Shown here one piece after another: positions 14,240 to 42,393 of a DNA stretch of 64,000 nucleotides. How positions within the stretch are numbered: position 1 is the stretch's first letter; each line of letters opens with the position of its first letter. The notes under the pieces are model-generated. The model was not told where the DNA came from. It searched no databases and saw nothing but the letters and a program-made list of their open reading frames with translations. Position numbers and translations under genes: made by a program. This stretch comes from an uncultured bacterium (GTDB taxonomy: Bacteria; Babelota; Babeliae; Babelales; Vermiphilaceae): positions 480,001 to 544,000 of the forward strand of contig OY968764.1 of the NCBI GenBank assembly GCA_963695335.1, in the 5' to 3' direction.

Positions 14240-14317
14240 GTCCCTATCGTCTAGCCTGGTCTAGGACATCGCCCTTTCACGGCGAAAACAGGGGTTCAAA
14301 TCCCCTTGGGGATGCCA
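14240..14317 (+). tRNA. tRNA-Glu (anticodon UUC), integration target
   Basis: GTCCCTA/TGGGGAT acceptor stem plus G-CCA; anticodon arm TCGCC-CTTTCAC-GGCGA; GGTTCAAATCC T-arm. Confidence 0.96.
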
Positions 14318-15766
14318 TTGTATACAATCGAACGAATCTGCGATTAAATCGAATGGCGAAACAAGCTCCCAATGAACATTTTCACCACTTATCTTCAAGT
14401 TCGATAATACGGTTTTGATTAAAAGCCGTTTTTGCTGAACTTCTGAACTTATAAAAATATCATATGCTCTGTCTGCAAGCTTAAGCAGCATCTGTGCGGT
14501 AATATAGTAATTTGTCTCTGCTTCTTGAAGTTGCTCTAAACGAATGGCAATATCAGTTGCTTTGTCTTTGAGTGATGTGAAGAATTTGTCATAGTAGGCG
14601 TCAGTAATACTCCCTTTCAGTTTATCCATATAAAGATTATCCATCATCGTGGCAAGTGTGCTTTGTTCTTTTAATAACTTTTCATTTTCTTGTTTGTGGA
14701 ATTCAACTTTGTTTTTATGCACTTCAGTGAGAACATCCATCGTGTCTTGGAGAATGTTTTTTGGCATTTGTAGGCGTGCAAAGAGTTTGCTGATGCTTGC
14801 AGTAATTGTTTCTTCACGGAACCATGTTGCGCCATGTTTGCCTTTTGCTTGCGTGCAATGGTAATAAACATGGCCTTTTTGCCGTTCATGGGTTATTGCA
14901 AGACCGCAATCGCCGCAACGGATTAAACCGCGATATAAAATGTCTTCTTTGCCTTTGTAGCGTTGTAGGTTTTTTCCATTTCTTTTTCTAACTTCTTGTA
15001 CTTCCTGAAACAATGCTTGTGTAATGATGGGTGGATAATTATGAGGATATGATTTTCCATTCACGGTCATGATGCCGTAATAGAAGGTGTAATTGAACAT
15101 TTTATCAACATTGCTTGTGGACCATGCAAGGCCATAATCAGTGTTTATTTTTTTGCATAAGGTGGAAAAAGAAAATGCACCTGTTGCATACAATTCAAAT
15201 GCTTTGCGCACAACTTGTGAGCCAAATTCATCAACAATAATTGTTGTTTTGTCGCTACCTAATGAAATGTTTTTATACCCATAAGGCGCTTTTGCAGGCC
15301 ATTCACCTTTGCGTAACTTTTGTTCAATGGCACGTTTAACATTATCACTGATTGCATCGGAATAATATTTTGCTAACCCAAGGCTGATGCCAAATTGGAA
15401 CTTTTCAACAGCAGAAATATTACTGTTGATGATTTGCCCGTCGGAAATAAAATGTAATTCAAGTTGATCTCTGAGGGCTTTTTCATAAAGGGTGGAGATG
15501 CGTTTATCAAAGGTGTTGCGTGATAGTCTATCTACTTTATCGCAGCAGATAACAACTTTTTCTTTTTGATTGAGTGCATAATCAATAATTGCATCAAATT
15601 CAGAGCGGCTATTGGTATAAGCACTTTCATCAAAGCTGCAAGTGCGGAGTATACTAAAGCCTTTGTTGCGACAATATTGTTCAAGGCGACTTATCTGGGC
15701 AGGGAGTGAATTACCAGCTTCTTTTTGTTCTTCTGTGCTGACACGAGCTATCAGAATAGCTTTCAT
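14261..15766 (-). CDS. Large serine recombinase (resolvase, recombinase and zinc-ribbon domains)
   Basis: ARVSTEEQ catalytic Ser, DRLSR, APYGY, CGDCG...YYHC and coiled coil; last codons are the antisense of tRNA-Glu. Confidence 0.95.
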   Translation of the reverse strand: MKAILIARVSTEEQKEAGNSLPAQISRLEQYCRNKGFSILRTCSFDESAYTNSRSEFDAIIDYALNQKEKVVICCDKVDRLSRNTFDKRISTLYEKALRDQLELHFISDGQIINSNISAVEKFQFGISLGLAKYYSDAISDNVKRAIEQKLRKGEWPAKAPYGYKNISLGSDKTTIIVDEFGSQVVRKAFELYATGAFSFSTLCKKINTDYGLAWSTSNVDKMFNYTFYYGIMTVNGKSYPHNYPPIITQALFQEVQEVRKRNGKNLQRYKGKEDILYRGLIRCGDCGLAITHERQKGHVYYHCTQAKGKHGATWFREETITASISKLFARLQMPKNILQDTMDVLTEVHKNKVEFHKQENEKLLKEQSTLATMMDNLYMDKLKGSITDAYYDKFFTSLKDKATDIAIRLEQLQEAETNYYITAQMLLKLADRAYDIFISSEVQQKRLLIKTVLSNLKISGENVHWELVSPFDLIADSFDCIQWHPQGDLNPCFRRERAMS

Positions 15767-16008
15767 GGGATAAATCCTTTTGTTTATGGATATTTCGTAG
15801 ATTTGTCGATGATAGTGTAACAGAAGAAATGAGGATTGTTATTAGTATTATAATTGGAGCTTCAAGATGATAATAAATATAAACAACAAGATATGATGAA
15901 TATAACTTAATATATTTAATTATATTTTTATGTATTAAATTTACTTAATTACATTATTATGGCATTCTTTGTGTGCATTACAAAATACATAACAAAAAAG
16001 GTGCCCTC

Positions 16009-17196
16009 ATGAAAAATTCTCATCTAATTCTCACCCTATGTGCATTAAGCACATTGATATCTCACTCAATGCAACTTACTCTCAAAGCAAATCCTCACAA
16101 ACTTAAACAGATAAGATACATTACATCACAAAAGGAATCACAAACAACACCCACCAAGATAAAGAAACAAAAAAATAATCAATATAATAATTGTTGTATT
16201 ATTGAAGGAAAAGAACGAGTAAAAGACCTTGTGGTACAGACTTCAAATGCATTGCAATCACGCCTTAAGGAATTACAAACAACATTCACCAAGACAAAGA
16301 AACGAAACAGCAGTCAATGCAATAATTGTTGTATTGTTGAAAAAAAAGAGCAAATTAAAGATCTTGTGGTATATACTTCAAATTCATTGCAATCATGTTT
16401 TCCTACATATAACTCCAAATACGATTCCAAAGTTTTTGTTGAAGATTATGGTTGTCAAAGTTTACATATTGTATTCGGTATGACCCATGCTTGTTTTGCC
16501 GTTGCGACGCTTAACCCTATTGGCTTGATTCCAATTATTACGAATGCTGTAGCAATAAAATGTATTAAGTTAGATAGGGATCTTATTAATTCAGTAGAAC
16601 GACCTCAGTTAGCAACAGATTTGATATCTTATTTGAATGCGATTAATCGTGAGGGTTATCTTTCTATTCATAGGCTTTTTATCAGAAGAGATTGTATAGA
16701 AAATGAGATAAGAAATCATAAAAAAGTTAATACACAAACGCTTTCATCCCTTGATTTAAAAAACGCATTAAATAATTATAATGTAAAACTTATTGAGTTA
16801 GAAAAGTCAGAAGACATAATAAATAGTGAAATTCTTGAACCAATCTTACCTATTTTGAATAAGTATGAAAATGTAGATATTGAAAAATGTTTAACATATA
16901 CAGATACACTAAAGAGAACTGCGGCATTTAAAAGACGTTTACTTGTTGGTGGAAGTTTGGCTATTTATCTCTCCACTTTGGGTATCGTTGTGGATGGCAC
17001 TGACAATGTATTAATTGCATTCATAGCTACGTTATCTATGCTTGATTTAATAGGAACACCTTTAATAATGGATAATGATTTATCAGATAAGATGAATATT
17101 ATTTCGAATTGCCTAAAAATCTATAAAAATCATTTGGCAACAATACAAAACAATGCTTTTGTAAAAACATTAGAAAATAAAAAAAATATTGAGTAA
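16009..17196 (+). CDS. Cargo protein: signal peptide, internal Cys-containing repeat, two hydrophobic hairpins
   Basis: AAGGTG RBS; NNCCI.E.KE..KDLVV.TSN.LQS occurs twice; ORF open from 15973. Confidence 0.75.
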   Translation: MKNSHLILTLCALSTLISHSMQLTLKANPHKLKQIRYITSQKESQTTPTKIKKQKNNQYNNCCIIEGKERVKDLVVQTSNALQSRLKELQTTFTKTKKRNSSQCNNCCIVEKKEQIKDLVVYTSNSLQSCFPTYNSKYDSKVFVEDYGCQSLHIVFGMTHACFAVATLNPIGLIPIITNAVAIKCIKLDRDLINSVERPQLATDLISYLNAINREGYLSIHRLFIRRDCIENEIRNHKKVNTQTLSSLDLKNALNNYNVKLIELEKSEDIINSEILEPILPILNKYENVDIEKCLTYTDTLKRTAAFKRRLLVGGSLAIYLSTLGIVVDGTDNVLIAFIATLSMLDLIGTPLIMDNDLSDKMNIISNCLKIYKNHLATIQNNAFVKTLENKKNIE

Positions 17197-17222
17197 TGCC
17201 GAAAAATAATAGTGGTTAAACA

Positions 17223-17259
17223 ATTAAGGGTTATTGCAGATTATTGCATAGCCCTTAAT
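17223..17259. terminator. Hairpin between convergent cargo and rep genes
   Basis: ATTAAGGGTTA...TAGCCCTTAAT inverted repeat. Confidence 0.55.
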
Positions 17260-17276
17260 CATTGTTCAGTAACTTA

Positions 17277-18434
17277 TCAAATTTCTTTTGTGATAGGTTC
17301 AAATTTTTCTAAGCAATCCCTAATCACCTTAAATGAATTTGATGATATGGGTTGTTGAGTAATCGTAGTGTTTTTCATATCAGCAATTAAGCGGTACCAG
17401 CTACGTTTATTGTGTGCACCAAGCATAGTGCGTAGTTCACGAATGCTTATTTGATCCAATGCCAATTTCATTCCATAAAGCTGCAAAATACGGCGAGGGC
17501 TGAGGGTAGGATTATTAAAAATAAGAGCAACAAGAAGTTGTTTTGTGTTATTTGTTTTGAAATCCAACAACGGTGGGCGCATGCGTTCAATTTCATCAAG
17601 ATAATGCAGGAGTACTTTGCGTGCAATGTTTGTTTTGAAGAGTCCTTTAAAGGTCAGTTGAGCTTTAATATTCAGCATCTTTAAAATCTGTTGGATCTTG
17701 CGCCGATTATTCAAGCGTGCTTCCATGCGTAAAACTTCAAACATTTTTTTATTATGCAATTCATCGTAGAGGTGCAATTGAATTGCGTTATCTTTTTCTA
17801 ATGATCGTTTATCACTTTTTTTTGCATATTCAAGATCACGAATTTTATCATAAAAAACTAATTCATAAGAGTTACTATGCCATTTGTAGCTGTGGCCTTT
17901 ATTGCGGTAATCAGTTTGATTGATATCAAGAGAGAGTTTGATATTTGCTTGTTCAATTTTGCTGATGTAATGATACGGAATAGAACCATCAGTGAGTGGG
18001 ATATTTTTTGAAAAATGAATGCCGGAAACGGGTGCATTGATCAAATTTTCAATATCAGTTGCAACTCCCATGGTGTGTAATGTTGTGCATAATTTTTGTA
18101 CAAGATCAGGAAATTGTTTTTGTGTTAGTTCTTCAAAGTTGTTACCAAATAATAGTTTTGGCAATGATAGTTCAATTTTAAGCAACGTTTTTGGTGTTGA
18201 GAGTGGTGAGGGCCGTCTTAAAAGGGATAGACGAGGTTTATAATAACCTGTAGCTAATTCTTTTTTTGTCGGGTTTTGTTTGGAAGAAATGCCGCGCAAA
18301 GCATAGGTTTTATCGTTGATCTCGGTCTTCGAAGCTTTAGCGAAGTAGACCCATCGCGCAGAAGGCGTAAATAAATCAGGATTAGTAATTTCAAACAAGT
18401 CTTGCGTAAGGAGTAAAACGATCGTATCTATCAT
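17277..18434 (-). CDS. Rolling-circle replication initiator, phage gII/X (CRI)-like
   Basis: MIDTI start, IELSLPKLLFGNN, V..IHFSKN, LVFYDK (putative catalytic Tyr) and LRMEARL motifs. Confidence 0.7.
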   Translation of the reverse strand: MIDTIVLLLTQDLFEITNPDLFTPSARWVYFAKASKTEINDKTYALRGISSKQNPTKKELATGYYKPRLSLLRRPSPLSTPKTLLKIELSLPKLLFGNNFEELTQKQFPDLVQKLCTTLHTMGVATDIENLINAPVSGIHFSKNIPLTDGSIPYHYISKIEQANIKLSLDINQTDYRNKGHSYKWHSNSYELVFYDKIRDLEYAKKSDKRSLEKDNAIQLHLYDELHNKKMFEVLRMEARLNNRRKIQQILKMLNIKAQLTFKGLFKTNIARKVLLHYLDEIERMRPPLLDFKTNNTKQLLVALIFNNPTLSPRRILQLYGMKLALDQISIRELRTMLGAHNKRSWYRLIADMKNTTITQQPISSNSFKVIRDCLEKFEPITKEI

Positions 18435-18804
18435 TGCAATATCCCATGATGAAATCAATTATATTGCACGTAAGGATACGGGTAAATGCTTTGAAAAACA
18501 AGTCCCGCAGAGCGGTTCTTGATGAATTACTCATTGCGGGATATTTGATGTGGCAAGGCTTGCCCTTCATAGCTTTAGCGGAGTAGGGTTGGTGTTTTAT
18601 GGGCCTGTGGAAGCCGCAGCACCCAACTTCGCAAAAGCTTTGAGACTCAGCTTTTTTTGCTTTTGCCTTTTTTGGTGAACGTCTTTTATTTGCTGCACTT
18701 GTTTGCAGATTCACTTCTATAAGTAATGTGAATAAGTTTGCAACACGTGTTTTTTCTTCAACTGTTAAGACTCTAACAGATTTTATTGGTCGTAATCGAG
18801 CCAT
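18391..18804 (-). CDS. Small basic hypothetical protein upstream of rep
   Basis: GAGAG RBS; helical N-half (LTVEEKTRVANLFTLLIEVN); the C-half contains a palindromic repeat and may be degenerate. Confidence 0.55.
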   Translation of the reverse strand: MARLRPIKSVRVLTVEEKTRVANLFTLLIEVNLQTSAANKRRSPKKAKAKKAESQSFCEVGCCGFHRPIKHQPYSAKAMKGKPCHIKYPAMSNSSRTALRDLFFKAFTRILTCNIIDFIMGYCNDRYDRFTPYARLV

Positions 18805-19071
18805 ATAATACTCTCTATAATAAATAATGAAAATTATTTTGTTCGTAGTATGGCGTAAAATTACTGTGACAAGTTTTTTAGATTAATTGGGAACTGAGAC
18901 AGGAATTGTACGCCATAGTCATGATCTGCGTGAGATCACGTTCAATATCTATAATTGCGTACATGGTATTCCTTCCGTGGCCTTCGAAGCTTTATGCGTA
19001 GTAGGCAAAAAAATGATGCTATCATTACAACGATTGCTGCAATGATAGCATATAGTGCGAATAATGCAAAT

Positions 19072-19401
19072 TTATTTTCTGCTTGGTACAGGAATCTCAA
19101 GCGGGATGTATTGGCCGTGAAGTTCAACCATGATTTTTTTGGATCCAAGCCCTCTTAAGATTTTAAAGAAACTTTGCATACTAAAATCTGTTTTGCTTCC
19201 TGATCGCATTGCTTGCACAATAGTCGGAGATACTCCTGCCATTTTTGCAAGTTTTCTTACGGATATATTGTCTTTTGCCATAGCAGCAAGAATCAATTCA
19301 GACAAAAGAAGTTCTTTATATTCTTCATCAAATTTTTTACGTTCTTCTGGGCTTAATGATTCAATAAGTTCATCTACAGTTGATTTTACTTTTTTATTCA
19401 T
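19072..19401 (-). CDS. XRE-HTH antitoxin (HigA-like)
   Basis: ISVRKLAKMAGVSPTIVQAMRSG HTH; overlaps the stop of the upstream toxin. Confidence 0.8.
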   Translation of the reverse strand: MNKKVKSTVDELIESLSPEERKKFDEEYKELLLSELILAAMAKDNISVRKLAKMAGVSPTIVQAMRSGSKTDFSMQSFFKILRGLGSKKIMVELHGQYIPLEIPVPSRK

Positions 19402-19777
19402 AATATGTTCCTTCTTTAACTCTTTTAATATAGTTCTCTTTTGCTCTTAAAGCTTTTTCTTTTTCTTTTATAGGCATTTTTGCTGATTTTTTTTCATAGG
19501 CATTGGTTATAATAACTTTTGATCCATCAAAGAAAAAACAGAAAAATCTGTCTGGTGAAGATTTAAATACATATATTTGGTCTCCTTCATAACGAAATTT
19601 TTCTAGATTAAAAACTTTTCCTGTGTTTCCAAGTAATAAAAAAAGGCGTGCGAGTTTCTTTTGACGATCATCAGGTAAATTTTTGAAATGAGCTAAAGGT
19701 TCACTTTTTCCCTTATCATTAAAATACCATTCAATGATATATTCTTTACCTTCACATGCTACAATCTTTTTCTTCAT
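19394..19777 (-). CDS. RelE/ParE-superfamily (Gp49/HigB-like) toxin
   Basis: IEWY...GKSE, IYVFK...RFFCFF...IITNAYEKKS.K.P..E pattern; toxin-first gene order. Confidence 0.85.
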   Translation of the reverse strand: MKKKIVACEGKEYIIEWYFNDKGKSEPLAHFKNLPDDRQKKLARLFLLLGNTGKVFNLEKFRYEGDQIYVFKSSPDRFFCFFFDGSKVIITNAYEKKSAKMPIKEKEKALRAKENYIKRVKEGTYYE

Positions 19778-19824
19778 TAAGCACTCGATTTTTTTATGGG
19801 TATTACTTTTTATTCATTATTAAA

Positions 19825-19844
19825 TGTATCATAAAAATGATACA
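19825..19844. promoter_or_regulatory. Probable TA operator
   Basis: Perfect inverted repeat TGTATCAT-AAAA-ATGATACA about 50 bp upstream of the toxin start. Confidence 0.6.
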
Positions 19845-20032
19845 AGCACAAGGATGATTATAATTTTGCACCTTCGTTCATTGTATATTTAACTCCGCAA
19901 ATAGCGTCTGTATCATGCTTAATGAGTATTTTATAGGGGCTGTTTGGTTCAGGAGAGCATGGTGAAGGGGATGCCAGTCTTCGCTCTAGCGAGCTTCGTA
20001 TGGCAAGCCAATCTTCGCAAATGATTGATATT

Positions 20033-20280
20033 AAAAATTAAAAGAGCTGTTTTAACAACGGCTCTTTTTTTTTTGTTTTAAATCGATCTATTCGTTACTT
20101 TTTATGTTTTGACCTATAAAATTCTATTGTGAAATATTGTTAAATTATAAAAATATTTATAAAACCATTGTTTTCTACCCCCCCCCATCTGATATTGTTA
20201 TAATTGAAATAAATATTGTTAGTTTTTCAAAAAAGGAGAGTTTTCATGAAGAAGTTATGTTTATTGTCAGGAATGATGGT
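20033..20280 (+). repeat. Terminator-promoter-signal peptide cassette, copy 1 (C9 tract)
   Basis: Near-identical to 23222-23463 and, in its 3' part, to 42236-42393; has TGTTATAAT extended -10 and poly-C at 20178-20186. Confidence 0.85.
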
Positions 20281-20824
20281 TTTTGTTGTGGCAGGTGTTA
20301 ATGCGGCACAAAACTTGACAGATGAACAACGTCAAAAATTGGAACAAGTGCAATGGGGAAAAATTAGACAACAACACGAATTGGCACGTCCTGCAACCTA
20401 TAAGATGTTAGATCCATTAGTACAGCAAAGCAACTGGCCTGCTGTTTTTCATATTCTTGATCAAATGCAAGGGGTTATAAGTGTTAATGAGTATCGATAC
20501 CATGGGGATACACTGCTTACTTTCGCGGTAGGTACAAAAAATATTTCAGCAGCAAAAACATTACTTGAAAAATATAAAGCTAATCCTAATGTAACATCTT
20601 TATCATTTTCAGGTCTTGGATTGTCACCATTGATGCAGGCTTGTATAACGGGAGACCTTGCCATGGTTAAATTATTACTTAGCTATAAAGCTAATCCTTT
20701 TTTAATGAGATCAGGAGAGGGAATAACACCAGGAAGTACCGCGTTGTTCTATGCTAAATATTATAACTATCCTGAAATTGTAAAATTGTTGGAAAAATAT
20801 ACACGTCCTGCAAAAGATGCATAA
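20246..20824 (+). CDS. Secreted ankyrin-repeat protein
   Basis: MKKLCLLSGM signal peptide; GDTLLTFAV, SPLMQACITGDLAMVKLLL and TALFYA..Y.EIVKLL repeats. Confidence 0.88.
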   Translation: MKKLCLLSGMMVFVVAGVNAAQNLTDEQRQKLEQVQWGKIRQQHELARPATYKMLDPLVQQSNWPAVFHILDQMQGVISVNEYRYHGDTLLTFAVGTKNISAAKTLLEKYKANPNVTSLSFSGLGLSPLMQACITGDLAMVKLLLSYKANPFLMRSGEGITPGSTALFYAKYYNYPEIVKLLEKYTRPAKDA

Positions 20825-20825
20825 A

Positions 20826-21026
20826 TTATAAAAATAAATGAGATCCCTTCTCTTGTTGTAGTTTTAAATTCTTCTAAACAATCTTTAATAATTTTAAACG
20901 AATTAGATGGCATGGGTTGTTGGGGAATGCTAGCATCTTTTATGTCAGCAATTAAGCGATACCAGCTGCGTTTATTGTAAGCACCAAACATGGTACGTAA
21001 TTCTCAGATGCTTATTGTTCCAATGC
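20826..21026 (-). pseudogene. 3' remnant of a rep gene homologous to 17277..18434
   Basis: MFGAYNKRSWYRLIADIK...SNSFKIIKDCLEEF versus MLGAHNKRSWYRLIADMK...SNSFKVIRDCLEKF; frameshift and stop upstream. Confidence 0.85.
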
Positions 21027-21289
21027 TATTTATGTTTTGCTTCAAGTTTTAATTGTAATCCCATGGCATTAATAATTGTACGAAAATCATGCCAACGTAG
21101 ATTCTTTTTAGAAAGCATTTTATAGATGTTTTGGTTGTCTACATTTTGTGCGTTAAGAACATGCTTTAAGGCAAGACGAATAGTTTCTTGATTTTCATCC
21201 ATAAGAGTAGCATTAAGGCATGCAAGTGCTTCTTCAGGATCTTGGAGTGCTTTGAGTAAACTTTCTTCGTGATCGATTGTTCTTTTCAT
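21026..21289 (-). CDS. Addiction-module antidote (HI1420-like) with an apparently shortened HTH
   Basis: LQDPEEALACLNA...LAL..V..AQ...QNIYKMLSKK...IINAMGLQL pattern. Confidence 0.7.
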   Translation of the reverse strand: MKRTIDHEESLLKALQDPEEALACLNATLMDENQETIRLALKHVLNAQNVDNQNIYKMLSKKNLRWHDFRTIINAMGLQLKLEAKHK

Positions 21290-21711
21290 TTTTCTTGTGT
21301 ATTTAAAGCATTATATTTTTGAAGAGCTAACTTTTTAATTTCTGCAATTTCATCTTCAGTAAAACGTTCTTTGAGATATCTTTGGAAAGTTTTTCTGTTC
21401 AGAGTTTTTTTTGCTATGACCATTTCAATAGCAGTGAGTTCAACTTCTTCTAAAATACCTCGATCTTTTAAAAAATCATCAAAGTTAGAGCCAATATACT
21501 TATTTTTTGTCATTATATTTTGTATCTTTTGTGATTGGATAATAGTTGGAGATACTTTTGCTATTTTTGCGAGTTTTTTTACTGATACATTATCTTTGGC
21601 TATAGCAGCAAGAATTAACTCGGATAATGCGAATATTCTATATTCTTCATTAAATTTTTTGCATTCTTCTGGACTCAATGATTCGATGAATGTATCAAAT
21701 GTTGATTTCAT
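21286..21711 (-). CDS. Chimeric protein of three antitoxin N-terminal segments
   Basis: aa 1-59 match 19072..19401; aa 67-101 carry IGSNFDDFL...GILEEV; aa 105-136 match the N-terminus of 21708..22013. Confidence 0.7.
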   Translation of the reverse strand: MKSTFDTFIESLSPEECKKFNEEYRIFALSELILAAIAKDNVSVKKLAKIAKVSPTIIQSQKIQNIMTKNKYIGSNFDDFLKDRGILEEVELTAIEMVIAKKTLNRKTFQRYLKERFTEDEIAEIKKLALQKYNALNTQEK

Positions 21712-22013
21712 TTTTTGAAGATATCTTTTGGCTCTTTATCCATAAGAGCTAGAAAGTGAGCAAAGCTTGCAAGTGTTAAGTTTGCTTGGCCACGTTGTAT
21801 TTTGGAGGCTTGAGATGGGCTTGTGGATAAGCGACGAACAACTTCGTTAAAACCAACCTTATTTTTTTTCATATATTCTGCCATAGTATCAGAAAGTATT
21901 TTTTGAATTGATCTGAGAATATCAACTTCAAGTTGTGCTTTGCGCTCAATTTCAGCAATTTGTTCTTTAGTGAGTCTTTTCTCTACGATGTCATAAAAGC
22001 TTTTTGTTTTCAT
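21708..22013 (-). CDS. XRE-HTH antitoxin
   Basis: ATG 22013 just after the toxin stop; GFNEVVRRLSTSPSQASKIQRGQANLTL HTH. Confidence 0.8.
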   Translation of the reverse strand: MKTKSFYDIVEKRLTKEQIAEIERKAQLEVDILRSIQKILSDTMAEYMKKNKVGFNEVVRRLSTSPSQASKIQRGQANLTLASFAHFLALMDKEPKDIFKK

Positions 22014-22014
22014 A

Positions 22015-22338
22015 TTATTTTTCCTCTGATAAGCGTTTATATGCAGTTTTAATATCTTTTTCCTGTGACTTTTTATCACCAGCAGCAAGTAGAATAATTA
22101 ATTGATTTTCCTTAAAGCAATAATATAGTCGGTATCCAAATTGTCGTTCACGTAATTCAAAGAGTCCTTTACCTAATGCACGACTATGAGGAAGTTTTAA
22201 TTCATTGCCTAATTTTTCTAACATGCGTAATTCTTGGGAGATAGATTCAAATTGTTCAATGGTTAACTTATAGATCCATTTTTCAAGGGGGCTTTTTCCG
22301 CTTTCATTAACCCAATATTCTATATTCCATTTTTTCAA
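22015..22338 (-). CDS. RelE/HigB (Gp49-like) toxin
   Basis: GKSPLEKW, LPHSRALGKGLFELR, YRLYYCF and LLAAGDK.SQ..DI..A; TTG start with AGGAG RBS. Confidence 0.88.
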   Translation of the reverse strand: MKKWNIEYWVNESGKSPLEKWIYKLTIEQFESISQELRMLEKLGNELKLPHSRALGKGLFELRERQFGYRLYYCFKENQLIILLAAGDKKSQEKDIKTAYKRLSEEK

Positions 22339-22451
22339 AGCTTCACTCCTACAAATAATAGTACTACTATAAAAGATAGTATAATAAGCGATGTTATGTC
22401 AATGCTAAACTTAATAAGTTACTTTATATAATGGAGTTTGTTTGCTCATTC

Positions 22452-22541
22452 GTTAACCATATCTTAAATTCCGTAAAGAGCGTCTGCATCATGCTTAATG
22501 GGTACTTGAAGGGGGCTGTTTGGTTCAGGAGAACATGGTGA
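22452..22541 (-). repeat. Second copy of the element right end (att-proximal integrase-tail sequence)
   Basis: AGCGTCTG.ATCATGCTTAATG.GTA....GGGGCTGTTTGGTTCAGGAGA.CATGGTGAA shared with 19880-19966. Confidence 0.85.
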
Positions 22542-22629
22542 AAAGGGAAGGCTTGAGTTGCTGTTGTGAGAAATGGGGTATGTGGTATACTGATTAATAG
22601 AAATTAACTTTTTAAATTAGGGATAATTT

Positions 22630-23202: not shown

Positions 23203-23221
23203 TAGTTTTATAAAAATAGTT

Positions 23222-23463
23222 AAAAATTAAAAGAGTCGTTTAAAACGGCTCTTTTTTTTGTTTTAAATCGATCCATTCGTCTTTTTCCATATTTTGACTA
23301 TAAAAATTCTATTGTAAAATATTGTAAAATTATAAAAATATTTATAAAACTATTGTTTTCTACCCCCCCCCCACCTGATATTGTTATAATTGAAATAAAT
23401 ATTGTTAATTCTCAAAAGAGGAGTATTTTTATGAAAAAGTTATGTTTACTATCAGGAATGATA
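23222..23463 (+). repeat. Terminator-promoter-signal peptide cassette, copy 2 (C10 tract)
   Basis: Aligns with 20033-20280; poly-C at 23363-23372. Confidence 0.85.
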
Positions 23464-24048
23464 GCTTTGGTTGCGGTTGCACATATTAATGGAGATGTTA
23501 CTTATCCTGGAAATTTAAAAGAAAAGCATATTCAGAGAATAGAAGATGTGCAAAGAGAGAAAATTAAACGTCAAAAACAGTTAGCACGTCCACCAATATA
23601 TAGAATGGTTGATGCTTTGATTAAAGAAGAATATGCATCGTGGCATTACGATGATAATGGACAATGGGTTGAAGCACCGGCAAAAATTGTTGTAGATTGG
23701 CCAGCCGTTTTTAGAATTTTAGATTCAATGCCTGGGGTTATCGATGTTAATGAATATGCAACTTATGAGAATCAGGATCCTTTACTTTGGGTTGCAGTAG
23801 AACAAAAAAATTTCTTAGCAGCTAAAACATTACTCGAAAAATATCATGCTGATCCTAATTTTGGCAAATGTACGGGAGAGCATGGAAAAAATGAGAAATG
23901 TAATATGAACGATTCTCTTTTGATGTTAGCGCGTGAAAAAGGAGATGTTCAAATGGGTATATTATTAACACAGCATGGCGCTCATCCGATTACGATGAAA
24001 CAAATAGGCATTGATAAAGGTTGGACTAATCCGAGTAACCGTGAATGA
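23431..24048 (+). CDS. Secreted ankyrin-like protein, paralog of 20246..20824
   Basis: MKKLCLLSGM, LARP..Y.M.D.L, DWPAVF.ILD.M.GVI.VNEY and AAKTLLEKY.A.PN are shared. Confidence 0.85.
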   Translation: MKKLCLLSGMIALVAVAHINGDVTYPGNLKEKHIQRIEDVQREKIKRQKQLARPPIYRMVDALIKEEYASWHYDDNGQWVEAPAKIVVDWPAVFRILDSMPGVIDVNEYATYENQDPLLWVAVEQKNFLAAKTLLEKYHADPNFGKCTGEHGKNEKCNMNDSLLMLAREKGDVQMGILLTQHGAHPITMKQIGIDKGWTNPSNRE

Positions 24049-27863: not shown

Positions 27864-30363
27864 ATGTTCAAATTGCGGTATCGGTATTTGATTTTTTTAC
27901 TTTTTTATCATTCCTTGCAAGCATTAACAACGCTTAATGTAACATTAGATTCAGACAATAATCCGGGTGGCAGGTGAGATTGGTGATTTGAGATATGCTT
28001 GAATACAATGAATCAAGGTCTTAACTCAATACCCGATGATTATGCGATTGTTTTTGACTTTCCAATGACGATTCAACTCAATGGAATCTTGCCGATTATT
28101 AACAATTCCTCAAATCCTGTGAATATCACCATTGGTAATACAGGCTCAACTCCTACCGTTACAATTGATGGTAATAGTGGTGCTTACAGTGGATTTTTTA
28201 TCCCAACGGGAAATGTGACGATTCAAAACATGATCTTTCAAAACCTGAGCGCACAAGGTGGTAATGGTGGAGACGGAATTTCAGGCGGTGGTGGTGGAAT
28301 GGGTGCTGGAGGGGCCATTTACGCACCTCAATTCTTTTTAAATGGCTCAAATCCTTCAATCACTTTGATGAATGTATTGATAAATGAATGTTCTGCTGTT
28401 GGTGGAAATGGAGGAAGTTATATAGGTCTTTCTTCCACTGGTAATGAAGGTGGCGGAGGTGGCGGAGGTTTTAGCGGAAATGGTGGTTCTATTACTACCA
28501 CGGGAAGCACTGGAGGGGGTGGCGGAGGTGGCTTTGGTGGAGATGGTGGAGATGTTACTCTTTCGACCGATGATTTGGGGGGCGGCGGAGGTGGTGGCGG
28601 TGGAATAGGATCCCGCGCTACCATAGGCACACTCACGAATCTGGGCAACGGAGGCTCGGATCAGAATATCGGTTTGGATGGAAATGGTTATGGTCTTTCA
28701 ATTACTGCTGGTTCAGGTGCCGGAGGGAATTCTGGAGGGAACATGGCAGGAGGAGGCGGTGGCGGCACCACGGGAGGTGGCGGAGGGGGAAGTAATGGAT
28801 CTGATGGGTTTCAACCGCAAGGTAGTTTAGCACCAGGAGGCAGTGCTGTACCTTCTGGAGGCAATGGAGGAGACGGCGGTGGAGGAGGCGGCGGTGGCGT
28901 TGTTGTAACATCGTTTACAAATGGAGTAGATGGACAAGCAGGTAGTGGTGGCTATGGCGGCGGCGGCGGTGGTGGGGCTGGTACGGGTGCTTATGATGCT
29001 TCTTATACAGTACAAGGTGGATCTGGTGGAGTTGGCGGAGGTGGCGGTGGCGGAGGAGTGAATCAATCCGGTACGACGCCTGCATGAGGTGGTAATTCTC
29101 TTGGTGGAGGTGGCGGCGCAGGTGGTGGACCATCTAATGGTATCACTGCTTGGGTGGAAATGATATAGGAAATCTTGGTGGAGGATCAGGAGGAATGGGC
29201 GCAAATAACTATGGAGCAGGTTTTGGTGGTGGAGGCGGTGGCGGAGGAAGTGGTCTGGGCGGAGCTATATTTGTGGATAGCGGTTTGAATTTCACCATAC
29301 AAGCATTCTCTGGAATTCCAACCACGTTCAATACACCAAATAATACAACACAAGCAGGAACTCATGGAACTGGTGGCCCTGGAGCTCAAGATGGTCTAGA
29401 TGGATCAGCACTTGGGAATAGTATTTTCCTGCGCTCTGGATCTTCTTTAACATTCATGGCGCAAGATGTTGATGATCTTTTAACACTTGGTGATCAAGTT
29501 GCGTTTATTGATGATACAAGTTTTGGTGGGCAAGGAACGAGTGTCTTTGTAGGAGGAAATGGAACTGTTATTTACAATGGAACAACAGATTATCCAGGAA
29601 CCATTACTATCAACAATGCGAATTTCAAAGTGAATGGGTTGATCGATGCAGCATCTATTTTTGTCTGTAGAAACATTGGTTTTAGTGCGCAAAGAGGTAC
29701 TCTCAGTGGGAGTGGAACATTAACTGGAAATGTTTTTGTAAATTCCGGAACAATCTCTCCAGATACAGGGCAAGCACTCACGCTTGGAAGTTTGACTCTC
29801 AATTCAGCAGATCCAATTAACAACACTCTTGGAAGCCTTGTGCATATTGAAATTGATGCAAACAGAGGCACATCTTTATTGATGTTACCGGGCCTGCATC
29901 ATTAGCGGGTACATTAGAAATTGAATTAGACCCAAATGCTCAGCCTGGAACGTATACTATTCTGAATTCATCTGGTATTACAGGAACCTTTGATACCGTT
30001 ACATTTACAGGAACAGTTCCTAATTATACGCTTTCTTATCTGCCAGTTGGAAATCCTACCTTTGTGCAATTTGATTTCTTAGGTTACCCAAACCCTAATC
30101 CTTTGCATAAAAAGAAGTTCCGCGAAACGCTTGCAGCGTATCATCAAGCATATCTGTTTGAAAAGGTTGTTGCAGCTATTGGAAAACATGAAAATAAAGA
30201 TGAAAAACGTTTACGTAAAAAAGAAGCAAAACGGTTGGAACATTATAAGCAGCTTCATCCTTATAGTCACTATGTAAAAAAGCATTTCAAATGGCTCAAG
30301 AAGTTTAAGCATAAAGAAGTTCCGCATATTGTTCACTTGATTAAAAAAGGTGAAGCGGCATAA
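27864..30363 (+). pseudogene. Degraded glycine-rich autotransporter-passenger/adhesin-like gene
   Basis: Signal peptide from ATG 27864; frameshifts near 27970-28000, 29150 and 29870; in-frame TGA at 29085; GGAIY/GGAIF motifs and beta-helix-like tail. Confidence 0.75.
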
Positions 30364-30372
30364 GTTTCGTTG

Positions 30373-30434
30373 TTATATTTTGTTGAGATAAAAGATCCCT
30401 TTTTATGGTAATTCATAAAGAGGGATCTTTTTTA
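30373..30434. repeat. Repeated stem-loop copy 2; left direct repeat of the toxin operon
   Basis: TTATATTTTGTTGAGATAAAAGATCCCTTTTTATGGTAATTCATAAAGAGGGATCTTTTT, closely matching 39900-39960. Confidence 0.8.
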
Positions 30435-30435
30435 A

Positions 30436-31659
30436 CTAATTTTTTGTTTCAATAATAGATTCGTCATTTTTATATTGATTGATTCTTATAAGAAATTTTT
30501 CTATTGCTTGTGTGAATAATTCTGAAGATTTTTTTGATAATGGTTCACCATTAACAATACTGTAGACTTTGCTTTGGATTTCATCAAGAATGCTATTAAT
30601 AAGCGTGATGCTAGATATAAATTCAGTACTATTACATGGTTTTTTTATAATATTAAGAGCTTCGTATACGCGTGATGTTATCTCTGAAGTAATATTTAGA
30701 TTACATAATTTTGCATTATAAAAGACATAAGAAGCCAATGTATTAAATTCATGAGACTGAGATGCATCATATTGCTGATTGCTAAGTATTATTATTATGG
30801 CTTCTTGTACACCAAAGGAGTCAAAACGACTAATGAGATTTTTGTGGTCTAATCGTCCTTTATAGAGATTATGAGCAAGCTCAATGATATCACAATTAAA
30901 GTTTTTTATAAGGAAGTTTTTTTGTGCGATAGGATCAGTAATATTGTTAGATGTAAGATATTCACTTATTTGTTTTTTAAGATGAATGAGTTCTGCATAA
31001 GCTATAGGTAAGCTTTTATGTTGTATGATAGATAAGATATTTTTTAAATCATTGGAAAATATAGATTCGTATTGTGTCATATCAATATGATCGTTGCGTG
31101 ATATATAACAATCATGAGCAGTTTGACGTACATCAAAACCATATTGTTTAATAACCCATTCTTTGATTTTAGCACCCTGAATAATATTTTTTTCTCGTGT
31201 TTGTTTTAATAATTTATACTTTAAACTTTCTAATTCTTTTGATGCTTTTTCAAGAGGGGCATGGGCGATGTGATGCAACATAGTAGTTATAGGATCAAGA
31301 TAAATTTTTTCTACTATAGCAAGGCATATCTTATCTCTAAGTTTATTTTTGTTGAGTGTTTTGCGAGTGCGGGGATATAAACGGTTGATTTTATTTAAAA
31401 GAGCATCAATATCACCTTTTTGCTGTAAAAGTATGCATTGTTCTTTATATTCCTGAATCTTCTTGCGTGATTTTGCACTCGTATGATTATCGATGTAATC
31501 TTGGCCTGTTATATCAATTATGAAGGCAGTTTCTGCTTCAATAAAGCTTTGCCACTCATCATCATTACGACCATTAGCTAAATTAGGGATGGAAACAATT
31601 GATAATGAAATGCTAGTAAAATAAATAAGAGATAAGAAATTTTGACGAAAGTATGACAT
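30436..31659 (-). CDS. Secreted paralog of the toxin central region, lacking a toxin domain
   Basis: YKEQCILLQQKGDI, CLAI.EK...DPIT and YGFDV...A..CY.SR are shared with the split toxin. Confidence 0.8.
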   Translation of the reverse strand: MSYFRQNFLSLIYFTSISLSIVSIPNLANGRNDDEWQSFIEAETAFIIDITGQDYIDNHTSAKSRKKIQEYKEQCILLQQKGDIDALLNKINRLYPRTRKTLNKNKLRDKICLAIVEKIYLDPITTMLHHIAHAPLEKASKELESLKYKLLKQTREKNIIQGAKIKEWVIKQYGFDVRQTAHDCYISRNDHIDMTQYESIFSNDLKNILSIIQHKSLPIAYAELIHLKKQISEYLTSNNITDPIAQKNFLIKNFNCDIIELAHNLYKGRLDHKNLISRFDSFGVQEAIIIILSNQQYDASQSHEFNTLASYVFYNAKLCNLNITSEITSRVYEALNIIKKPCNSTEFISSITLINSILDEIQSKVYSIVNGEPLSKKSSELFTQAIEKFLIRINQYKNDESIIETKN

Positions 31660-31697
31660 GTGATTGTTCCAAAAAAATAATAATGAAGTAGTTTGGT

Positions 31698-32075
31698 TTA
31701 ATTTTTTGTTTCTATAATAAATTGATCATTTTCATGCTTGATGATTACTTCTTTGGGTTTTAGCTTACACACTTTTTCTTCCCAATCAGTAATAATTTGC
31801 ACATATTGTTTGCGAGTCATTTTTAACAAAGTTGGAATTTCTTCTTCAGAATACAAATCAGAAAGCAATATGTAATTGCCGTCTTTTTCTAATGCAGTAA
31901 GATTACCGTTGGTTGAATAACCCCAATCATCGTTAAAACCCCATTCTTTAAAAGAAGAAGGATGATAACCAACATCTGTTGCTAAAAAATGTCCCAAAAT
32001 AGTCATTTTTTCATTTGAGGCATCTTCATAACGATAATGTCCACTAGTAGAAATAGTTAATTTAATAAATTCCAT
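31698..32075 (-). CDS. Putative immunity protein of the EndoU toxin
   Basis: 125-aa ORF whose ATG directly follows the toxin TAA; no signal peptide. Confidence 0.7.
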   Translation of the reverse strand: MEFIKLTISTSGHYRYEDASNEKMTILGHFLATDVGYHPSSFKEWGFNDDWGYSTNGNLTALEKDGNYILLSDLYSEEEIPTLLKMTRKQYVQIITDWEEKVCKLKPKEVIIKHENDQFIIETKN

Positions 32076-32803
32076 TTAAATCCTTGCTTCTACGATAGGA
32101 TAGGCTGTTGTGATTTGACCATTTTTGGTTATATACATTTCAATTTCTATGCCTTCGCTTGTAAAACCGCTAATTATATATTTTCCACCAGATTCTTTTT
32201 TGGCAATCGCTCCACTTTTTATAAAGTCGTCATATGCTTCACCTATTTTGCGAACTACTTCTTCACGTGACCAATGTTGAGGAAAAAACGTTTTATTGGG
32301 TATTCGTGAACCGTCTATCACTAAATCCGTAAGATAACATCCATTTTTTTCAATGCCTTTTTCTATAAATTGAACGGCACCACTATTTTTTACAGCACCC
32401 TTTAAATCATGGTGAAATCCTCCGATTCCCGACACTCTTCCTTTTTTAGACCATCCTAAACCTTCTAGAGTAAAAATATGCTCATATGGTAATTGGACTT
32501 TTTGATTTTTACACTCAGCAAAACCATATCTATGGTTACCAAAGACGTTTTTTAATGAATCTAATTCTTTTTTAAAGTTACCCAAGACATTAATTTTTTC
32601 ACTTTCTAGCAACGTTTTACTGCTATTGATGATAGCTTTTACACTGCCACTCTTATTCATATTGTGCATAGCATCAGACATTTTTATTGTAATGCCTTCG
32701 GCTGTCACTAAAATAGGATTGTCAGCCAGATGCGTATCAAAGCCTTTTTTGAATGTACGTGCTACAGCAGTAGTGGATTTGCCAAGTTTTTCTAATACAT
32801 CTA

Positions 32804-33781
32804 ACGTGAGTTCGATCTAAGAAAATTTTAAAAAAAAATTCATTACGATATCCTTTTAAAAACAATCAAACTTAAAAAAGGGTATTGTAATGAATTTGAC
32901 TACTATTTTCTACCATTGTGATGAATTTTGCAAATTTTTTGAAAAAGAGTTTCCAATCCGTGTTCTTTCTGATGGGAAAAATATTAGAAAAAGGAATGGA
33001 TCTTTAAAGCTTAGTGAAACTATGACGATTGTCATTTATTATCAGCAATCTGGCTATAAAACATTCAAGGATTATTACACAAAAAGTGATGAATTAAAAT
33101 CAGCGTTCCCTGGTCTTACAAGCTATAATCGTTTTGTAGAATTACAACAAAAAATTACAATGCCTTTAGCTATTTTTACAAAATTATATGCGCTTGGAAA
33201 ATGTGATGGCAATTCATACATTGACAGTTTTTCACTGTCTGTAAGTCATCAAAAAAGAATATCTTCTCATAAAACCTTTAAAGGATTAGCCGCTCGAGGA
33301 AAAACAAGTGTGGGTTGGTTTTACGGATTCAAAGTTCATGTAATTATCAATGGTTGGGGAGAAATTATTGATTTTTGTATCACCTCAGGAAATGTTGTTG
33401 ATAATAATACAAAAGTTATTGAAAAAATAACTGAAAAAATTCATGGAAAAGTTTATGGAGATAAAGGCTATTTGCTTAATTCAGAACTGTTTCAAAAGCT
33501 TTACTCTAAAGGCATTCATATTGTTACAAAAATTCGAAATAATATGAAAAATAAGCTTATGGATGTTAAAGATAAAATCATGTTAAAAAAACGTGGAATC
33601 ATTGAGTCTGTTGGAGCAATTCTTAAGGAGGATCTTAATATTGAACATTCACGATATCGTAGTCCAAGATCATTGATTATAAATGTATTTGCAGCTTTAG
33701 CTTCTTACGGATTTCGAAAAAAAAAGCCATCAATATACAAAAAAAGCTTTTTTCTATTGACGGCTTAGATCGAACTCACGT
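32804..33781 (+). mobile_element. IS982-family insertion sequence (978 bp)
   Basis: Perfect 18-bp inverted repeat ACGTGAGTTCGATCTAAG; 8-bp target duplication TACATCTA at 32796-32803 and 33782-33789. Confidence 0.95.
32890..33768 (+). CDS. IS982-family DDE transposase
   Basis: SYNRFVEL, YIDS, GWFYGFKVH, GDKGY and KRGIIES motifs. Confidence 0.93.
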   Translation: MNLTTIFYHCDEFCKFFEKEFPIRVLSDGKNIRKRNGSLKLSETMTIVIYYQQSGYKTFKDYYTKSDELKSAFPGLTSYNRFVELQQKITMPLAIFTKLYALGKCDGNSYIDSFSLSVSHQKRISSHKTFKGLAARGKTSVGWFYGFKVHVIINGWGEIIDFCITSGNVVDNNTKVIEKITEKIHGKVYGDKGYLLNSELFQKLYSKGIHIVTKIRNNMKNKLMDVKDKIMLKKRGIIESVGAILKEDLNIEHSRYRSPRSLIINVFAALASYGFRKKKPSIYKKSFFLLTA

Positions 33782-35033
33782 TACATCTATCTCTTTAAGA
33801 AAATTATAAGCGGCGCCAAGGCCTTCGCAGACCATAACATCCGCCATGAATTGGCCTATAAAAACAGCGTATTGATCACCGGTCACGTCTTGTAGCGGTT
33901 CCATTATTTCGCAGAAAACATCAATGCGTTGCTGATATTCTTCTGGAGATAAATATAATTTTCCAACGGTAAGGTCTGATGTAAAATGAGCGGTATTTAT
34001 TATCAGTTCAGTGAGTGTGTATGTTGTAGTGATGCCATTGTGCATTACAGCAATAGGATCATTCCATAGAGCAGCGCCTCCTTTTTTTAAAAGTGATCTG
34101 AGGTCGCAGGCAAGATGTCCCATGTTAGAAACTTGCGTAACTGGATTAAGTCCTTTGAAAAAAGCGCCAAATCCTTTCAATAATAGTTCCGATGATCGTT
34201 GTAATACTGGATGTGTGCCGCTCAAAATAGCATGTGCTAGTTGTTGCATGTCACCCAATGTACGACTAACCATTGAGAAATTAAAGATGAATGTAGGGTG
34301 ATCTTTTGCTGTTCTGATAGCATCTATGGAGTTATAAACGTGTAATTCTATTTTGAGCAAATTGCTGAAGTTACAAAGACGTGCATTACCAAATATATGT
34401 TGCGCAAGATCATTCATTTCATTGGCTACTGACTCATAACTATTATTATTCTCAAGAATTTTTACAGCAGCTTGATTCACATCAATAGCCATAAAAGATT
34501 CAGCAAGTTTTATATGATCCGTTCGTGCTTCATATGTTTTATGAGCAAGTCCAACAATGTTTTTGCCAAATGATTTTTTAATGTATTCTTTTTGTGCGGT
34601 GGGGGCAGTGAGATAACGTTCTTCAAAAACTTTATTTACTTGTTTATCAAGACGAACCAGTTCTGCGTGAGCAATTGGTAAATCTTTATGCTTTATGTTG
34701 TCGATAATTGCTCGCATAGTGTTTGCAGTGCGGGATTGTTTTTCTGGTGCAGCAATATAATCAGCTCGAGATACATAACAGTTTTGCGCAGCACTTAAAA
34801 CATCAAAACCGTAGTGATCAACAGTCCATTGTGTAATTTGATCGTTGTTGGTCAGATTTTTTTCTTGCGCTTGATTATGTATTTGTGTTTCAAGATTTAC
34901 CATTTCTGTAATAGCTCTTTCAAGTGACGGAGCACGCCGAATGGCAGCAAGTATCATAGTAATTGGATCATGCAAAGCTTTTTCTGTTATTGCAAGACAA
35001 GCATTAGCAGTAAAATCATATTTTTTATTGTTA

Positions 35034-35883
35034 GGTTCTGTTGAGTTTTTGAAAAGATAAGTTTTGAAGTATGATAACACCGAAAAAGCAAAAACCAAAT
35101 CACTAAAACGGTGCTATCATGAAAAAAGAGTATATCAGCGAAATGGCCTGGAGCAAAATTTTTAATTTTTTAAAACAGCAAAAAAACATTTATATAAAAG
35201 AAGAAAAGGACTGTAAAAAGTTTATAGAAGGGACATTTTGGATGGCAAGAACAGGAGCACAATGGAGAGAGTTGCCGGAAAAATATGGAAATTGGAATAG
35301 TGTGTTCAGCAGATTTAATGCTTGGTCAAAAAAACATATTTGGGAAAAATTACTCAGTTTTTGTGCAGAGGATCCCGATATGGAATATGTAATGATTGAT
35401 GCCACGATAGTCCGCGCACATGCCTGTTCTGCTGGATATGATCAATTTAAAAATGAAGGACTGGGAAGAAGTAAAGGTGGTTTTACAAGTAAGATACATG
35501 CAACAGTAGATGCTTTAGGCAATCCTTTAAGATTTGTTATTACTCCTGGTCAGCGTAATGATATTACTCAGGCTGATATTTTATTAAAAGATATTTCTGA
35601 ATCATATGTAATAGCGGATAAAGGATATGATTCCACTGAATTACGTTCGAAATTAATAGAAAAAAATTGTGTTCCCGTTATTCCTCCAAGATCCAATCGT
35701 AAAGAACAATATCAATATGATGAACATCTATATAAAGAGAGACATGCGATTGAATGCTTGTTTTCAAAGATAAAACACTTTAGAAGAGTGTTTGCTCGTT
35801 TTGATAAATCGGCACGAAATTTTTTATCTTTTCTTTCTTTTGTGGGAACTTGCATATGGTTACGATGAAAACTCAACAGAACC
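35034..35883 (+). mobile_element. IS5-family insertion sequence (850 bp)
   Basis: 16-bp inverted repeat GGTTCTGTTGAGTTTT; TA duplication at 35032-35033 and 35884-35885. Confidence 0.93.
35119..35868 (+). CDS. IS5-family transposase
   Basis: RTGAQWRELP..YG.W, IDATIVRAH, GRSKGG.TSKIH, ADKGYD and R..IE..F..IK.FRR motifs. Confidence 0.95.
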   Translation: MKKEYISEMAWSKIFNFLKQQKNIYIKEEKDCKKFIEGTFWMARTGAQWRELPEKYGNWNSVFSRFNAWSKKHIWEKLLSFCAEDPDMEYVMIDATIVRAHACSAGYDQFKNEGLGRSKGGFTSKIHATVDALGNPLRFVITPGQRNDITQADILLKDISESYVIADKGYDSTELRSKLIEKNCVPVIPPRSNRKEQYQYDEHLYKERHAIECLFSKIKHFRRVFARFDKSARNFLSFLSFVGTCIWLR

Positions 35884-42235: not shown

Positions 42236-42393
42236 AATTTCTATTGTGAAATATTATAAAATTATAAGAATGTTTATAAAACCATTGTTTTTTACCCCCC
42301 CCATCTGATATTGTTATAATTGAAATAAATATTGTTAGTTTTCAAAAAAGGGGTGTTTTTATGAAGAAGTTATGTTTATTGTCGGGGATGATG
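42236..42393 (+). repeat. Promoter-signal peptide cassette, copy 3 (C8 tract)
   Basis: Aligns with 20120-20280; poly-C at 42295-42302. Confidence 0.85.

Follow-up and report, generated by a model that had tools for sequence, protein, structure and literature searches.

The window analysed here is a 64,000-nucleotide stretch (positions 480001-544000) of the single 1.37-Mb contig that makes up the genome of an uncultured bacterium of the Vermiphilaceae. It contains a small integrative element at the CCA end of a tRNA-Glu gene; the element carries its attachment site, attP, inside its own recombinase gene and probably excises as a circle, which a predicted initiator, Rep, would replicate. We give this reading as a whole a probability of roughly two in three. 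Judged from the sequence comparisons below, the element itself is real and intact, one of a large family that integrates at tRNA ends, its integration anatomy (boundaries, empty site, split recombinase gene and the stranded 3′ end of that gene) is well supported, and the position of attP within the recombinase gene is its main feature. The last point was overlooked in the original prediction, an annotation of the same DNA that had described a 5.7-kb integrative rolling-circle plasmid or satellite between repeats of the tRNA-Glu 3′ end. Integration is confirmed by an empty site and Rep does resemble rolling-circle initiators, but the satellite part of that description is unsupported.

Boundaries and empty site

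The insertion is defined by the following features (window coordinates):

14240..14317, forward strand: tRNA-Glu(ttc), the target (ARAGORN, Rfam)
14308..14317, forward strand: attL direct repeat, GGGGATGCCA, with the predicted crossover dinucleotide at 14312-14313
19967..19976, forward strand: attR direct repeat, GGGGATGCCA, with the predicted crossover dinucleotide at 19971-19972
19977..20072, forward strand: displaced native flank of tRNA-Glu, a hairpin repeat and terminator (comparison with genome G002)

Exactly two exact copies of GGGGATGCCA were found when both strands of the 1.37-Mb genome were scanned; by chance, 0.52 copies would be expected in the whole genome and 0.006 on a single strand of 30 kb. 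With one mismatch allowed, two or more matches occurred in 38 of 100 shuffles of the window. The 10-base repeat alone is therefore only suggestive, and it is the empty site that proves the boundary. Both predicted copies of the repeat are present, but across the family the shared core measures about 6 bp rather than 10.

The empty site occurs in G002, a genome of the same genus, where tRNA-Glu is directly joined to 100 bases that match positions 19977-20072 with 89% identity, an arrangement that had been proposed as a check on the insertion. The best genome-wide match of these 100 bases, which include the terminator, was again 19977-20072 (122 bits versus 54.5 for the next match). On the 3′ side of tRNA-Glu in 10 genomes of the genus, seven had no adjoining recombinase arm, two had a recombinase with 88% identity and one had a remnant; the last 30 bases of the gene are identical to those in 8 of the 10. 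The displaced native flank had also been predicted, on the strength of a palindrome behind the right repeat. Because this hairpin also lies behind many other tRNA genes in the same genome, it is by itself weak evidence of a native flank, and we set it aside as proof and used the 100-base match in G002 instead. The Rfam scan matched two tRNAs and nothing else. The 5.7-kb element stands as first drawn, with one correction at its left end: the reading frame of the recombinase continues past the left repeat and reaches 57 bases into the tRNA gene.

The split recombinase gene

14261..15766, reverse strand: large serine recombinase, 501 amino acids as integrated (Pfam Resolvase, Recombinase and Zn ribbon above cut-off)
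19878..19976, reverse strand: stranded tail of the recombinase gene, its last 32 codons plus the stop codon, read from the TGG of attR; also the element arm of attP (reading frame, profile)

By its predicted domains the first of these is an intact large serine recombinase. Ser10 is invariant in 30 homologues, as are D79, R80, R83 and the zinc ligands, and the protein aligns with the A118 and TP901-1 integrases up to residue 467; the nearest NCBIfam models, XisF, CcrB and CcrA, were all far under their cut-offs. On the strand opposite to the tRNA, the CCA of attL is the codon of Trp484 (TGG), and residues 484-501 (18 residues) are read off the antisense strand of the tRNA gene and match the tRNA of element-free genomes.

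The same arrangement recurs in relatives. In 117 Rep-bearing loci, 43 distinct recombinase-tRNA junctions were found, and 41 of them have an in-frame TGG at the tRNA end. The junctions lie at eight tRNA types, namely Asp (14), Glu (11), Asn (7), Arg(tct) (4), Arg(tcg) (3), Gln (2), Pro (1) and Arg(cct) (1), and none of the 43 at tmRNA. The tRNA-derived tail of the integrated protein is only 3-4 residues long in 24 of the 43. From the aligned domains, integration keeps all the canonical parts of the recombinase, which end near residue 467, and swaps only a 32-residue extension, in this element for 18 residues derived from the tRNA and in most relatives for 3-4.

The stranded tail

The stranded tails of related elements share the consensus W-x-x-L-V-D-x-F-R-N, followed later by L-x-x-I-Q-T-V-F. 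A profile built from 14 tails matched in 56 of the 117 loci and never in reversed controls. Over tail codons 11-27, the ratio of nonsynonymous to synonymous differences (pN/pS) was 0.47 in 18 disjoint pairs versus 1.23 and 1.01 in the other frames, and one opposite-strand frame gave 0.65. Because a protein profile had picked these first tails, the selection test was redone on attR sites called from DNA alone, by a 5-base core and a host hairpin whose pattern was taken from earlier outputs of the same analysis. All 12 sites called in this way opened a frame of 31-46 codons, while 53 of 299 background core matches fell in the 25-45 range. The pN/pS of codons 11-27 was 0.45 (6 pairs), and the two other frames gave 1.0-1.4 in both tests. 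By these values the stranded tail is conserved and under protein-level selection.

The joined, tailed form of the protein occurs in nature at tandem elements (loci L018, L037, L099, L146 and L147), and a tailed C-terminus was read by eye in 5 of the 120 homologous proteins listed (6 entries unparsed). In a folded model of one tailed recombinase the tail forms low-confidence helices (predicted local distance difference test, pLDDT, 37-47). Excision would rejoin the stranded 32 codons to the recombinase gene. Because the chromosome yields only the tail-less form and the circle only the tailed form, the tail most likely tunes the activity or direction of the recombinase, with the tailed form serving integration.

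Predicted crossover site and half-sites

Agreement between attL and attR was compared in 27 distinct elements: it held in 26-27 of the 27 at positions 3-6 from the tRNA end and in 13 at position 7. The symmetry of the rebuilt attP is highest between positions 5 and 6 (0.395 versus 0.15-0.32). One genome, G009, carries an element in two copies that are 99.7% alike over 4.6 kb and about 160 kb apart, one at tRNA-Arg and the other interrupting an M16 peptidase gene (L148-L151; the assembly breaks in both). The M16 site has GGTTCGA 25 bases before a CCA, the same spacing as in the tRNA. The two attR sites differ at position 4, as expected if the exchange falls inside that position; this secondary site is a single case at contig ends, in which a sequencing error is possible. 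Four elements whose attR lacks the TGG agree with the difference at position 4. From these comparisons we infer that the crossover falls at bases 5-6 from the tRNA end.

The tRNA arm has a GAAC motif at positions 21-24 and the element arm has one at 27-30, an offset of 6 bp that we liken to that of the LI integrase, where the motif offset between the attB and attP arms is about 5 bp. In the proposed mechanism, the T-arm and acceptor strand of tRNA-Glu would form the host arm of attL, and the recombinase would read the T-arm motif as the host half-site, exchanging strands at bases 5-6. An exchange at this position means that the element would provide the last four tRNA bases and leave the tRNA whole. 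Recombination of attP with attB would presumably be carried out by the recombinase itself. No directionality factor was identified in the element.

The predicted initiator Rep

17277..18434, reverse strand: Rep, 385 amino acids, predicted Rep_trans/gene II-type nicking initiator (D3, H140, N144, Y195, K197, R236, E238)

In an alignment of 111 sequences, D3, N144, Y195, K197, R236 and E238 of Rep are invariant and H140 is present in at least 90%. The structural model has a pLDDT of 77, and its top PDB match by Foldseek was RepDE (E 0.028). When the model was ranked by VIA over 48,161 chains, RepDE came first (Z 7.9, rmsd 5.4, 226 residues aligned) and RepSTK1 second (Z 7.0, rmsd 5.2, 211 aligned), ahead of the next chain at Z 5.0; among viral structure models, an inovirus G2P matched at E 1.2e-4. 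Six of 69 distant family members passed the cut-off of PF05144, and PF02486 was not matched. A precomputed PF05144 label stands on 9 of the 120 Rep homologues listed, and the nearest Atlas clusters (score 0.96-0.97) carry it on 25-31% of their members. The family comprises 1,274 clusters at 50% identity.

Like RepDE, RepSTK1 and the inovirus gene II proteins, Rep has a predicted TBP-like sheet with an N-terminal Asp, Tyr-x-Lys and Arg-x-Glu in the same order; the active residues of RepDE are D46, D142, E214, Y191 and K193 (PMC4797284). It differs from all three in its 8-16% identity and forms a separate family. The initiator similarity that had been suggested for this gene was thus recovered through the model, the distant members and the Atlas clusters, and Rep is predicted to be a TBP-like fold with the catalytic Tyr-x-Lys of Rep_trans/gene II initiators. 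On the excised circle it would act as a rolling-circle initiator.

Host hairpin repeats stand at 18328-18349 in rep, at 18557-18591 in a small upstream open reading frame (ORF) and at 18983-19000 further upstream. The insertion inside rep is in frame, and similar in-frame inserts occur in other Rep homologues. At three loci (L021, L023 and L101) rep is oriented the other way, pointing away from the recombinase, which shows that inversion of the replication module with respect to the integration module is possible.

Conservation of the recombinase-Rep pair

A survey of synteny, which had been suggested for this pair, covered 117 loci, of which 26 were too short to assess. In 85 of the other 91 a recombinase lies near Rep, with the pairing holding down to about 32% Rep identity. 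The loci are mostly from Babeliales and other small-genome bacteria, and named homologues of both proteins are labelled Candidatus Babeliales or Dependentiae, so that the present host most likely belongs there too. Among 31 genomes, Rep was present in 12 and the recombinase in 16; complete elements span 3.9-13.4 kb.

The pairing is modular, because each gene also occurs without the other. In the same genome, a 9.2-kb element at tRNA-Gln (L160, genome positions 885553-894803) has a 57%-identical recombinase and its own stranded tail, and carries a Toprim/DUF3987 gene and a tyrosine integrase in place of Rep. A relic at tRNA-Arg(tct) (L159, 204826-211575) retains an intact Rep, a toxin-antitoxin pair and two stranded tails and has no recombinase.

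The occurrence of each gene alone would also suit an incidental split, in which the stranded sequence is kept purely as a binding arm in the DNA, the tail does nothing and Rep came along with a co-integrated replicon. The codons in the first 30 bases of the tail do show fixed DNA motifs, the integrated form retains every canonical domain, and McMurdie et al. give a trivial reading for DsiB, a comparable recombinase of Dehalococcoides (PMC3146451). We nevertheless regard this explanation as highly improbable: the protein-type selection spans codons 11-27, which no recombinase half-site would reach, nearly all junctions keep the frame, and the pairing with Rep persists between distant family members.

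The proposed free circle and its possible spread

The reading that we prefer, an integrative element with attP in its recombinase gene and a circle replicated by Rep, has several points against it. The circle junction (19976 to 14318) was absent from five sequencing runs, all of low coverage (6-9% of words), and no terminal repeat was found in the 117 loci, many of which were cut from longer contigs. No Rep relative was present among plasmid records. The loci are related and partly duplicated, so that the counts overstate their independence; the recombinase family also occurs with a primase-like gene and no Rep, and Rep occurs without the recombinase in 6 of the 91 loci. The role of the tail is a proposal, and the folded model shows the tail with low confidence. 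Rep itself has no Pfam, PHROG or NCBIfam match, PF05144 was matched by 0 of 34 close homologues in our own scan, sequence searches of Rep against PDB gave no match, and Foldseek gave none for the model at E 0.001. A structural Z under 8 can reflect a common arrangement. Finally, Rep has His (H140) and Asn where RepDE has the metal ligand D142 and D146, in a residue mapping made by motif order and not by superposition (PMC4797284).

A contig of run X5 joins 14318 to 19991 (80% likeness, 30-base side); we read it as the empty site of a relative and do not count it as evidence.

The same integration would be seen in an integrative mobilizable element (IME), whose Rep would be mainly a relaxase and would borrow the pore of a visiting conjugative element. 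Rep_trans-type proteins double as initiators and relaxases in IMEs (PMC5704250), so the absence of a relaxase, which had been stated for this element, is not claimable. A coupling protein is missing from 35 of 118 Rep_trans-type streptococcal IMEs (PMC5704250, PMC7563843); the element has an integration/excision module of its own, and by record title relatives reach distant hosts (Rickettsiales, Fusobacterium, Patescibacteria). Mobilization is still unlikely, in our judgement: a VirD4-type coupling protein was found in 0 of the 31 genomes (FtsK-like coupling proteins were not searched for), VirB4 was not found in the element's own genome, and the family members match PF05144 rather than PF02486.

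A satellite of a filamentous phage, in which a helper inovirus would package single-stranded circles made by Rep, is less probable again. The nearest family and structure matches of Rep do come from the gene II proteins of inoviruses, a serine recombinase carries phage RSM into the 3′ end of a tRNA gene (PMC3816273), and the range of element sizes would suit a filament. Against these points, the Zot profile matched in 0 of 31 genomes, although divergent inoviruses can escape it, and no Rep relative was present in viral contigs or phage records. As predicted, neither coat nor Zot is among the six genes of the element. A scan of 115 of the 128 ORFs of 24 elements, which left out 13 that mostly repeat the small upstream gene, detected no Zot or coat family at E 1e-5, nor any family of relaxases or coupling proteins.

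For the circle of the preferred reading, uptake of naked DNA is our first guess for transfer, reached by exclusion because ComEC is present in the genome and no helper was found in the genomes searched.

Comparison with known systems

The closest precedent is DsiB of the Dehalococcoides ssrA islands, also a reverse-strand large serine recombinase beside attL, with a 3′ end that overlaps attL/attP, in islands that form tandem arrays; its authors propose that a full-length gene is formed only on the circle or where another island stands in front of it (PMC3146451). DsiB differs in its tmRNA target, 20-bp repeat and insertion in the T-loop, and belongs to a six-gene module with DsiA, ParB and Mom for which we found no rolling-circle initiator listed (PMC3146451). 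Here, eight ordinary tRNA types are used, with a core of about 6 bp at the acceptor end, a single recombinase and Rep; no second serine recombinase, ParB or Mom is among the six genes of the element. The comparison is by description and not by sequence.

Other precedents cover other parts. The Ralstonia filamentous phages RSM1 and RSM3 share a serine recombinase, a tRNA 3′-end core (13 bp) and a gene II-type initiator, but have a small resolvase-type enzyme, attP between genes, and virion and assembly genes (PMC3816273). IMEs with Rep_trans/MobT initiators or serine integrases are likewise small; they combine a recombinase and a gene resembling rolling-circle initiators with variable cargo and with genes for toxin-antitoxin or restriction systems. 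Those with serine recombinases, however, disrupt protein genes, whereas it is the tyrosine integrases that use tRNA and gene-end sites; these IMEs depend for transfer on a conjugative helper, which was not found here, and the available text of these reports describes no attP in the recombinase gene (PMC5704250, PMC7563843). In Mx8 IntP and the SSV-type 'suicidal' integrases, attP does lie in the integrase gene, the target is a tRNA gene and the enzyme is altered or split, but these are tyrosine recombinases and the SSV-type split separates the catalytic part (PMC4383910, PMC8371274). Here a serine enzyme keeps its canonical domains all on one side and exchanges only a C-terminal extension. The A118/LI and TP901-1 integrases resemble it in their catalytic, recombinase and zinc-ribbon/coiled-coil domains, short core and symmetric attP, and lack its roughly 50 extra C-terminal residues spanning attP and its tRNA acceptor-end target.

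The word 'tRNA' is absent from the main text of a survey of large serine recombinases (PMC10083194), and in the Islander paper of 2014 serine recombinases are stated not to be known to target tRNA genes (PMC4383910). We found no description of this family of recombinase-Rep elements in the literature searched; a prior listing in the TIGER database or in the supplements of the TIGER paper is possible. What is new is that a split serine recombinase resembling DsiB is combined with an initiator predicted to be of the gene II/Rep_trans type.

Region upstream of rep, accessory genes and cargo

16009..17196, forward strand: cargo gene, 395 amino acids, signal-peptide-like start, internal 45-codon duplication, no known family
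18391..18804, reverse strand: small ORF, candidate regulator or directionality factor, conserved only in its first ~45 residues
18493..18541, reverse strand: G+C hairpin and T run, candidate rep attenuator, about 70 bases before the rep start
18850..18963, no strand assigned: nested inverted repeats, candidate origin/operator, conserved in close relatives only
19072..19401, reverse strand: HTH antitoxin-like gene (Pfam HTH_3)
19394..19777, reverse strand: Gp49-like toxin gene of a type II toxin-antitoxin pair (Pfam Gp49 above cut-off)

The gene content (recombinase, cargo, Rep, small ORF and toxin-antitoxin pair) is as originally listed. A terminator-like hairpin (-12 kcal/mol or lower) precedes rep in 38 of 89 upstream regions; among control windows 6 of 89 had one, and among shuffles 1 of 89. 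The conserved part of the small ORF consists of a helix and a basic stretch, and a SpoVG-family gene occupies its position in other family members. In the candidate origin, one inverted-repeat pair (18907-18963) encloses an inner hairpin (18921-18939) and a second pair spans 18849-18917; no nick site was identified in the repeats of 18850-18963, word counts gave no family-wide origin motif, and a promoter scan was at chance level (22 versus 27). A leader peptide from an upstream ATG and ribosome-binding site near 18965 was dropped, as its frame varies among relatives. Rep likely nicks an origin upstream of its own gene, under attenuator control, and the toxin-antitoxin pair likely stabilises the element.

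The cargo protein has 8 homologues (Atlas score 0.76, no family). It had been called secreted; the signal-peptide-like start is there and secretion is a prediction from sequence, but relatives carry many other types of cargo. Among the 115 ORFs, these include ankyrin, WD40, restriction-modification, toxin-antitoxin, hydrolase and SpoVG families, and the slots on either side of rep would be exchangeable. In a close relative at tRNA-Glu (L002:7214-9399), the cargo is an Ntox17-domain gene with a small neighbour.

Surroundings of the element

20848..22546, reverse strand: older relic of the same family, comprising the 3′ end of rep, toxin-antitoxin genes and another stranded recombinase tail, whose core has decayed

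The displaced flank leads to an ankyrin gene and this relic, and not straight to core genes. Recombinase-less units of host flank, cargo and stranded tail (L060, L067 and window 19977-22546) stand in tandem behind tRNA-Glu, three of them in G009; such units would have lost the recombinase side while the tRNA regained a flank of native type. A terminator-promoter-leader block at 20031-20291, 23220-23476 and 42236-42564 precedes paralogous ankyrin-like genes; the blocks are 77-87% alike, and more copies lie elsewhere in the genome. The stretch 27999-37024 is fragmented and holds glycine-rich ORFs and two DDE transposases. An EndoU nuclease ORF (32076-32708) is followed there by a small ORF that may be an immunity gene, and the DDE transposase at 32890 is identical at the protein level to one that lies in the relic at tRNA-Arg.

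Implications

A broader reading, which we think somewhat unlikely as a whole, is that these elements are widespread, undescribed minimal replicons in which tail exchange is the integration/excision switch, reading of the universal tRNA T-arm permits retargeting, and rolling-circle copies spread by DNA uptake. It includes the absence of a directionality factor, retargeting by one core dinucleotide within the element's own codons, and spread with neither virion nor conjugation. One clade of serine recombinases targets eight tRNA types, in contrast with the Islander statement of 2014, and its core is too short for island finders that rely on repeats. If the tail does set direction or activity, it would be a new control principle for enzymes widely used in genome engineering, and the annotated copies, which are mostly tail-less, would be the wrong form to test. 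In Babeliales, the elements carry ankyrin, WD40, restriction and toxin-antitoxin cargo, and they might serve as a replicon and an integration vector where bacteria lack genetic tools.

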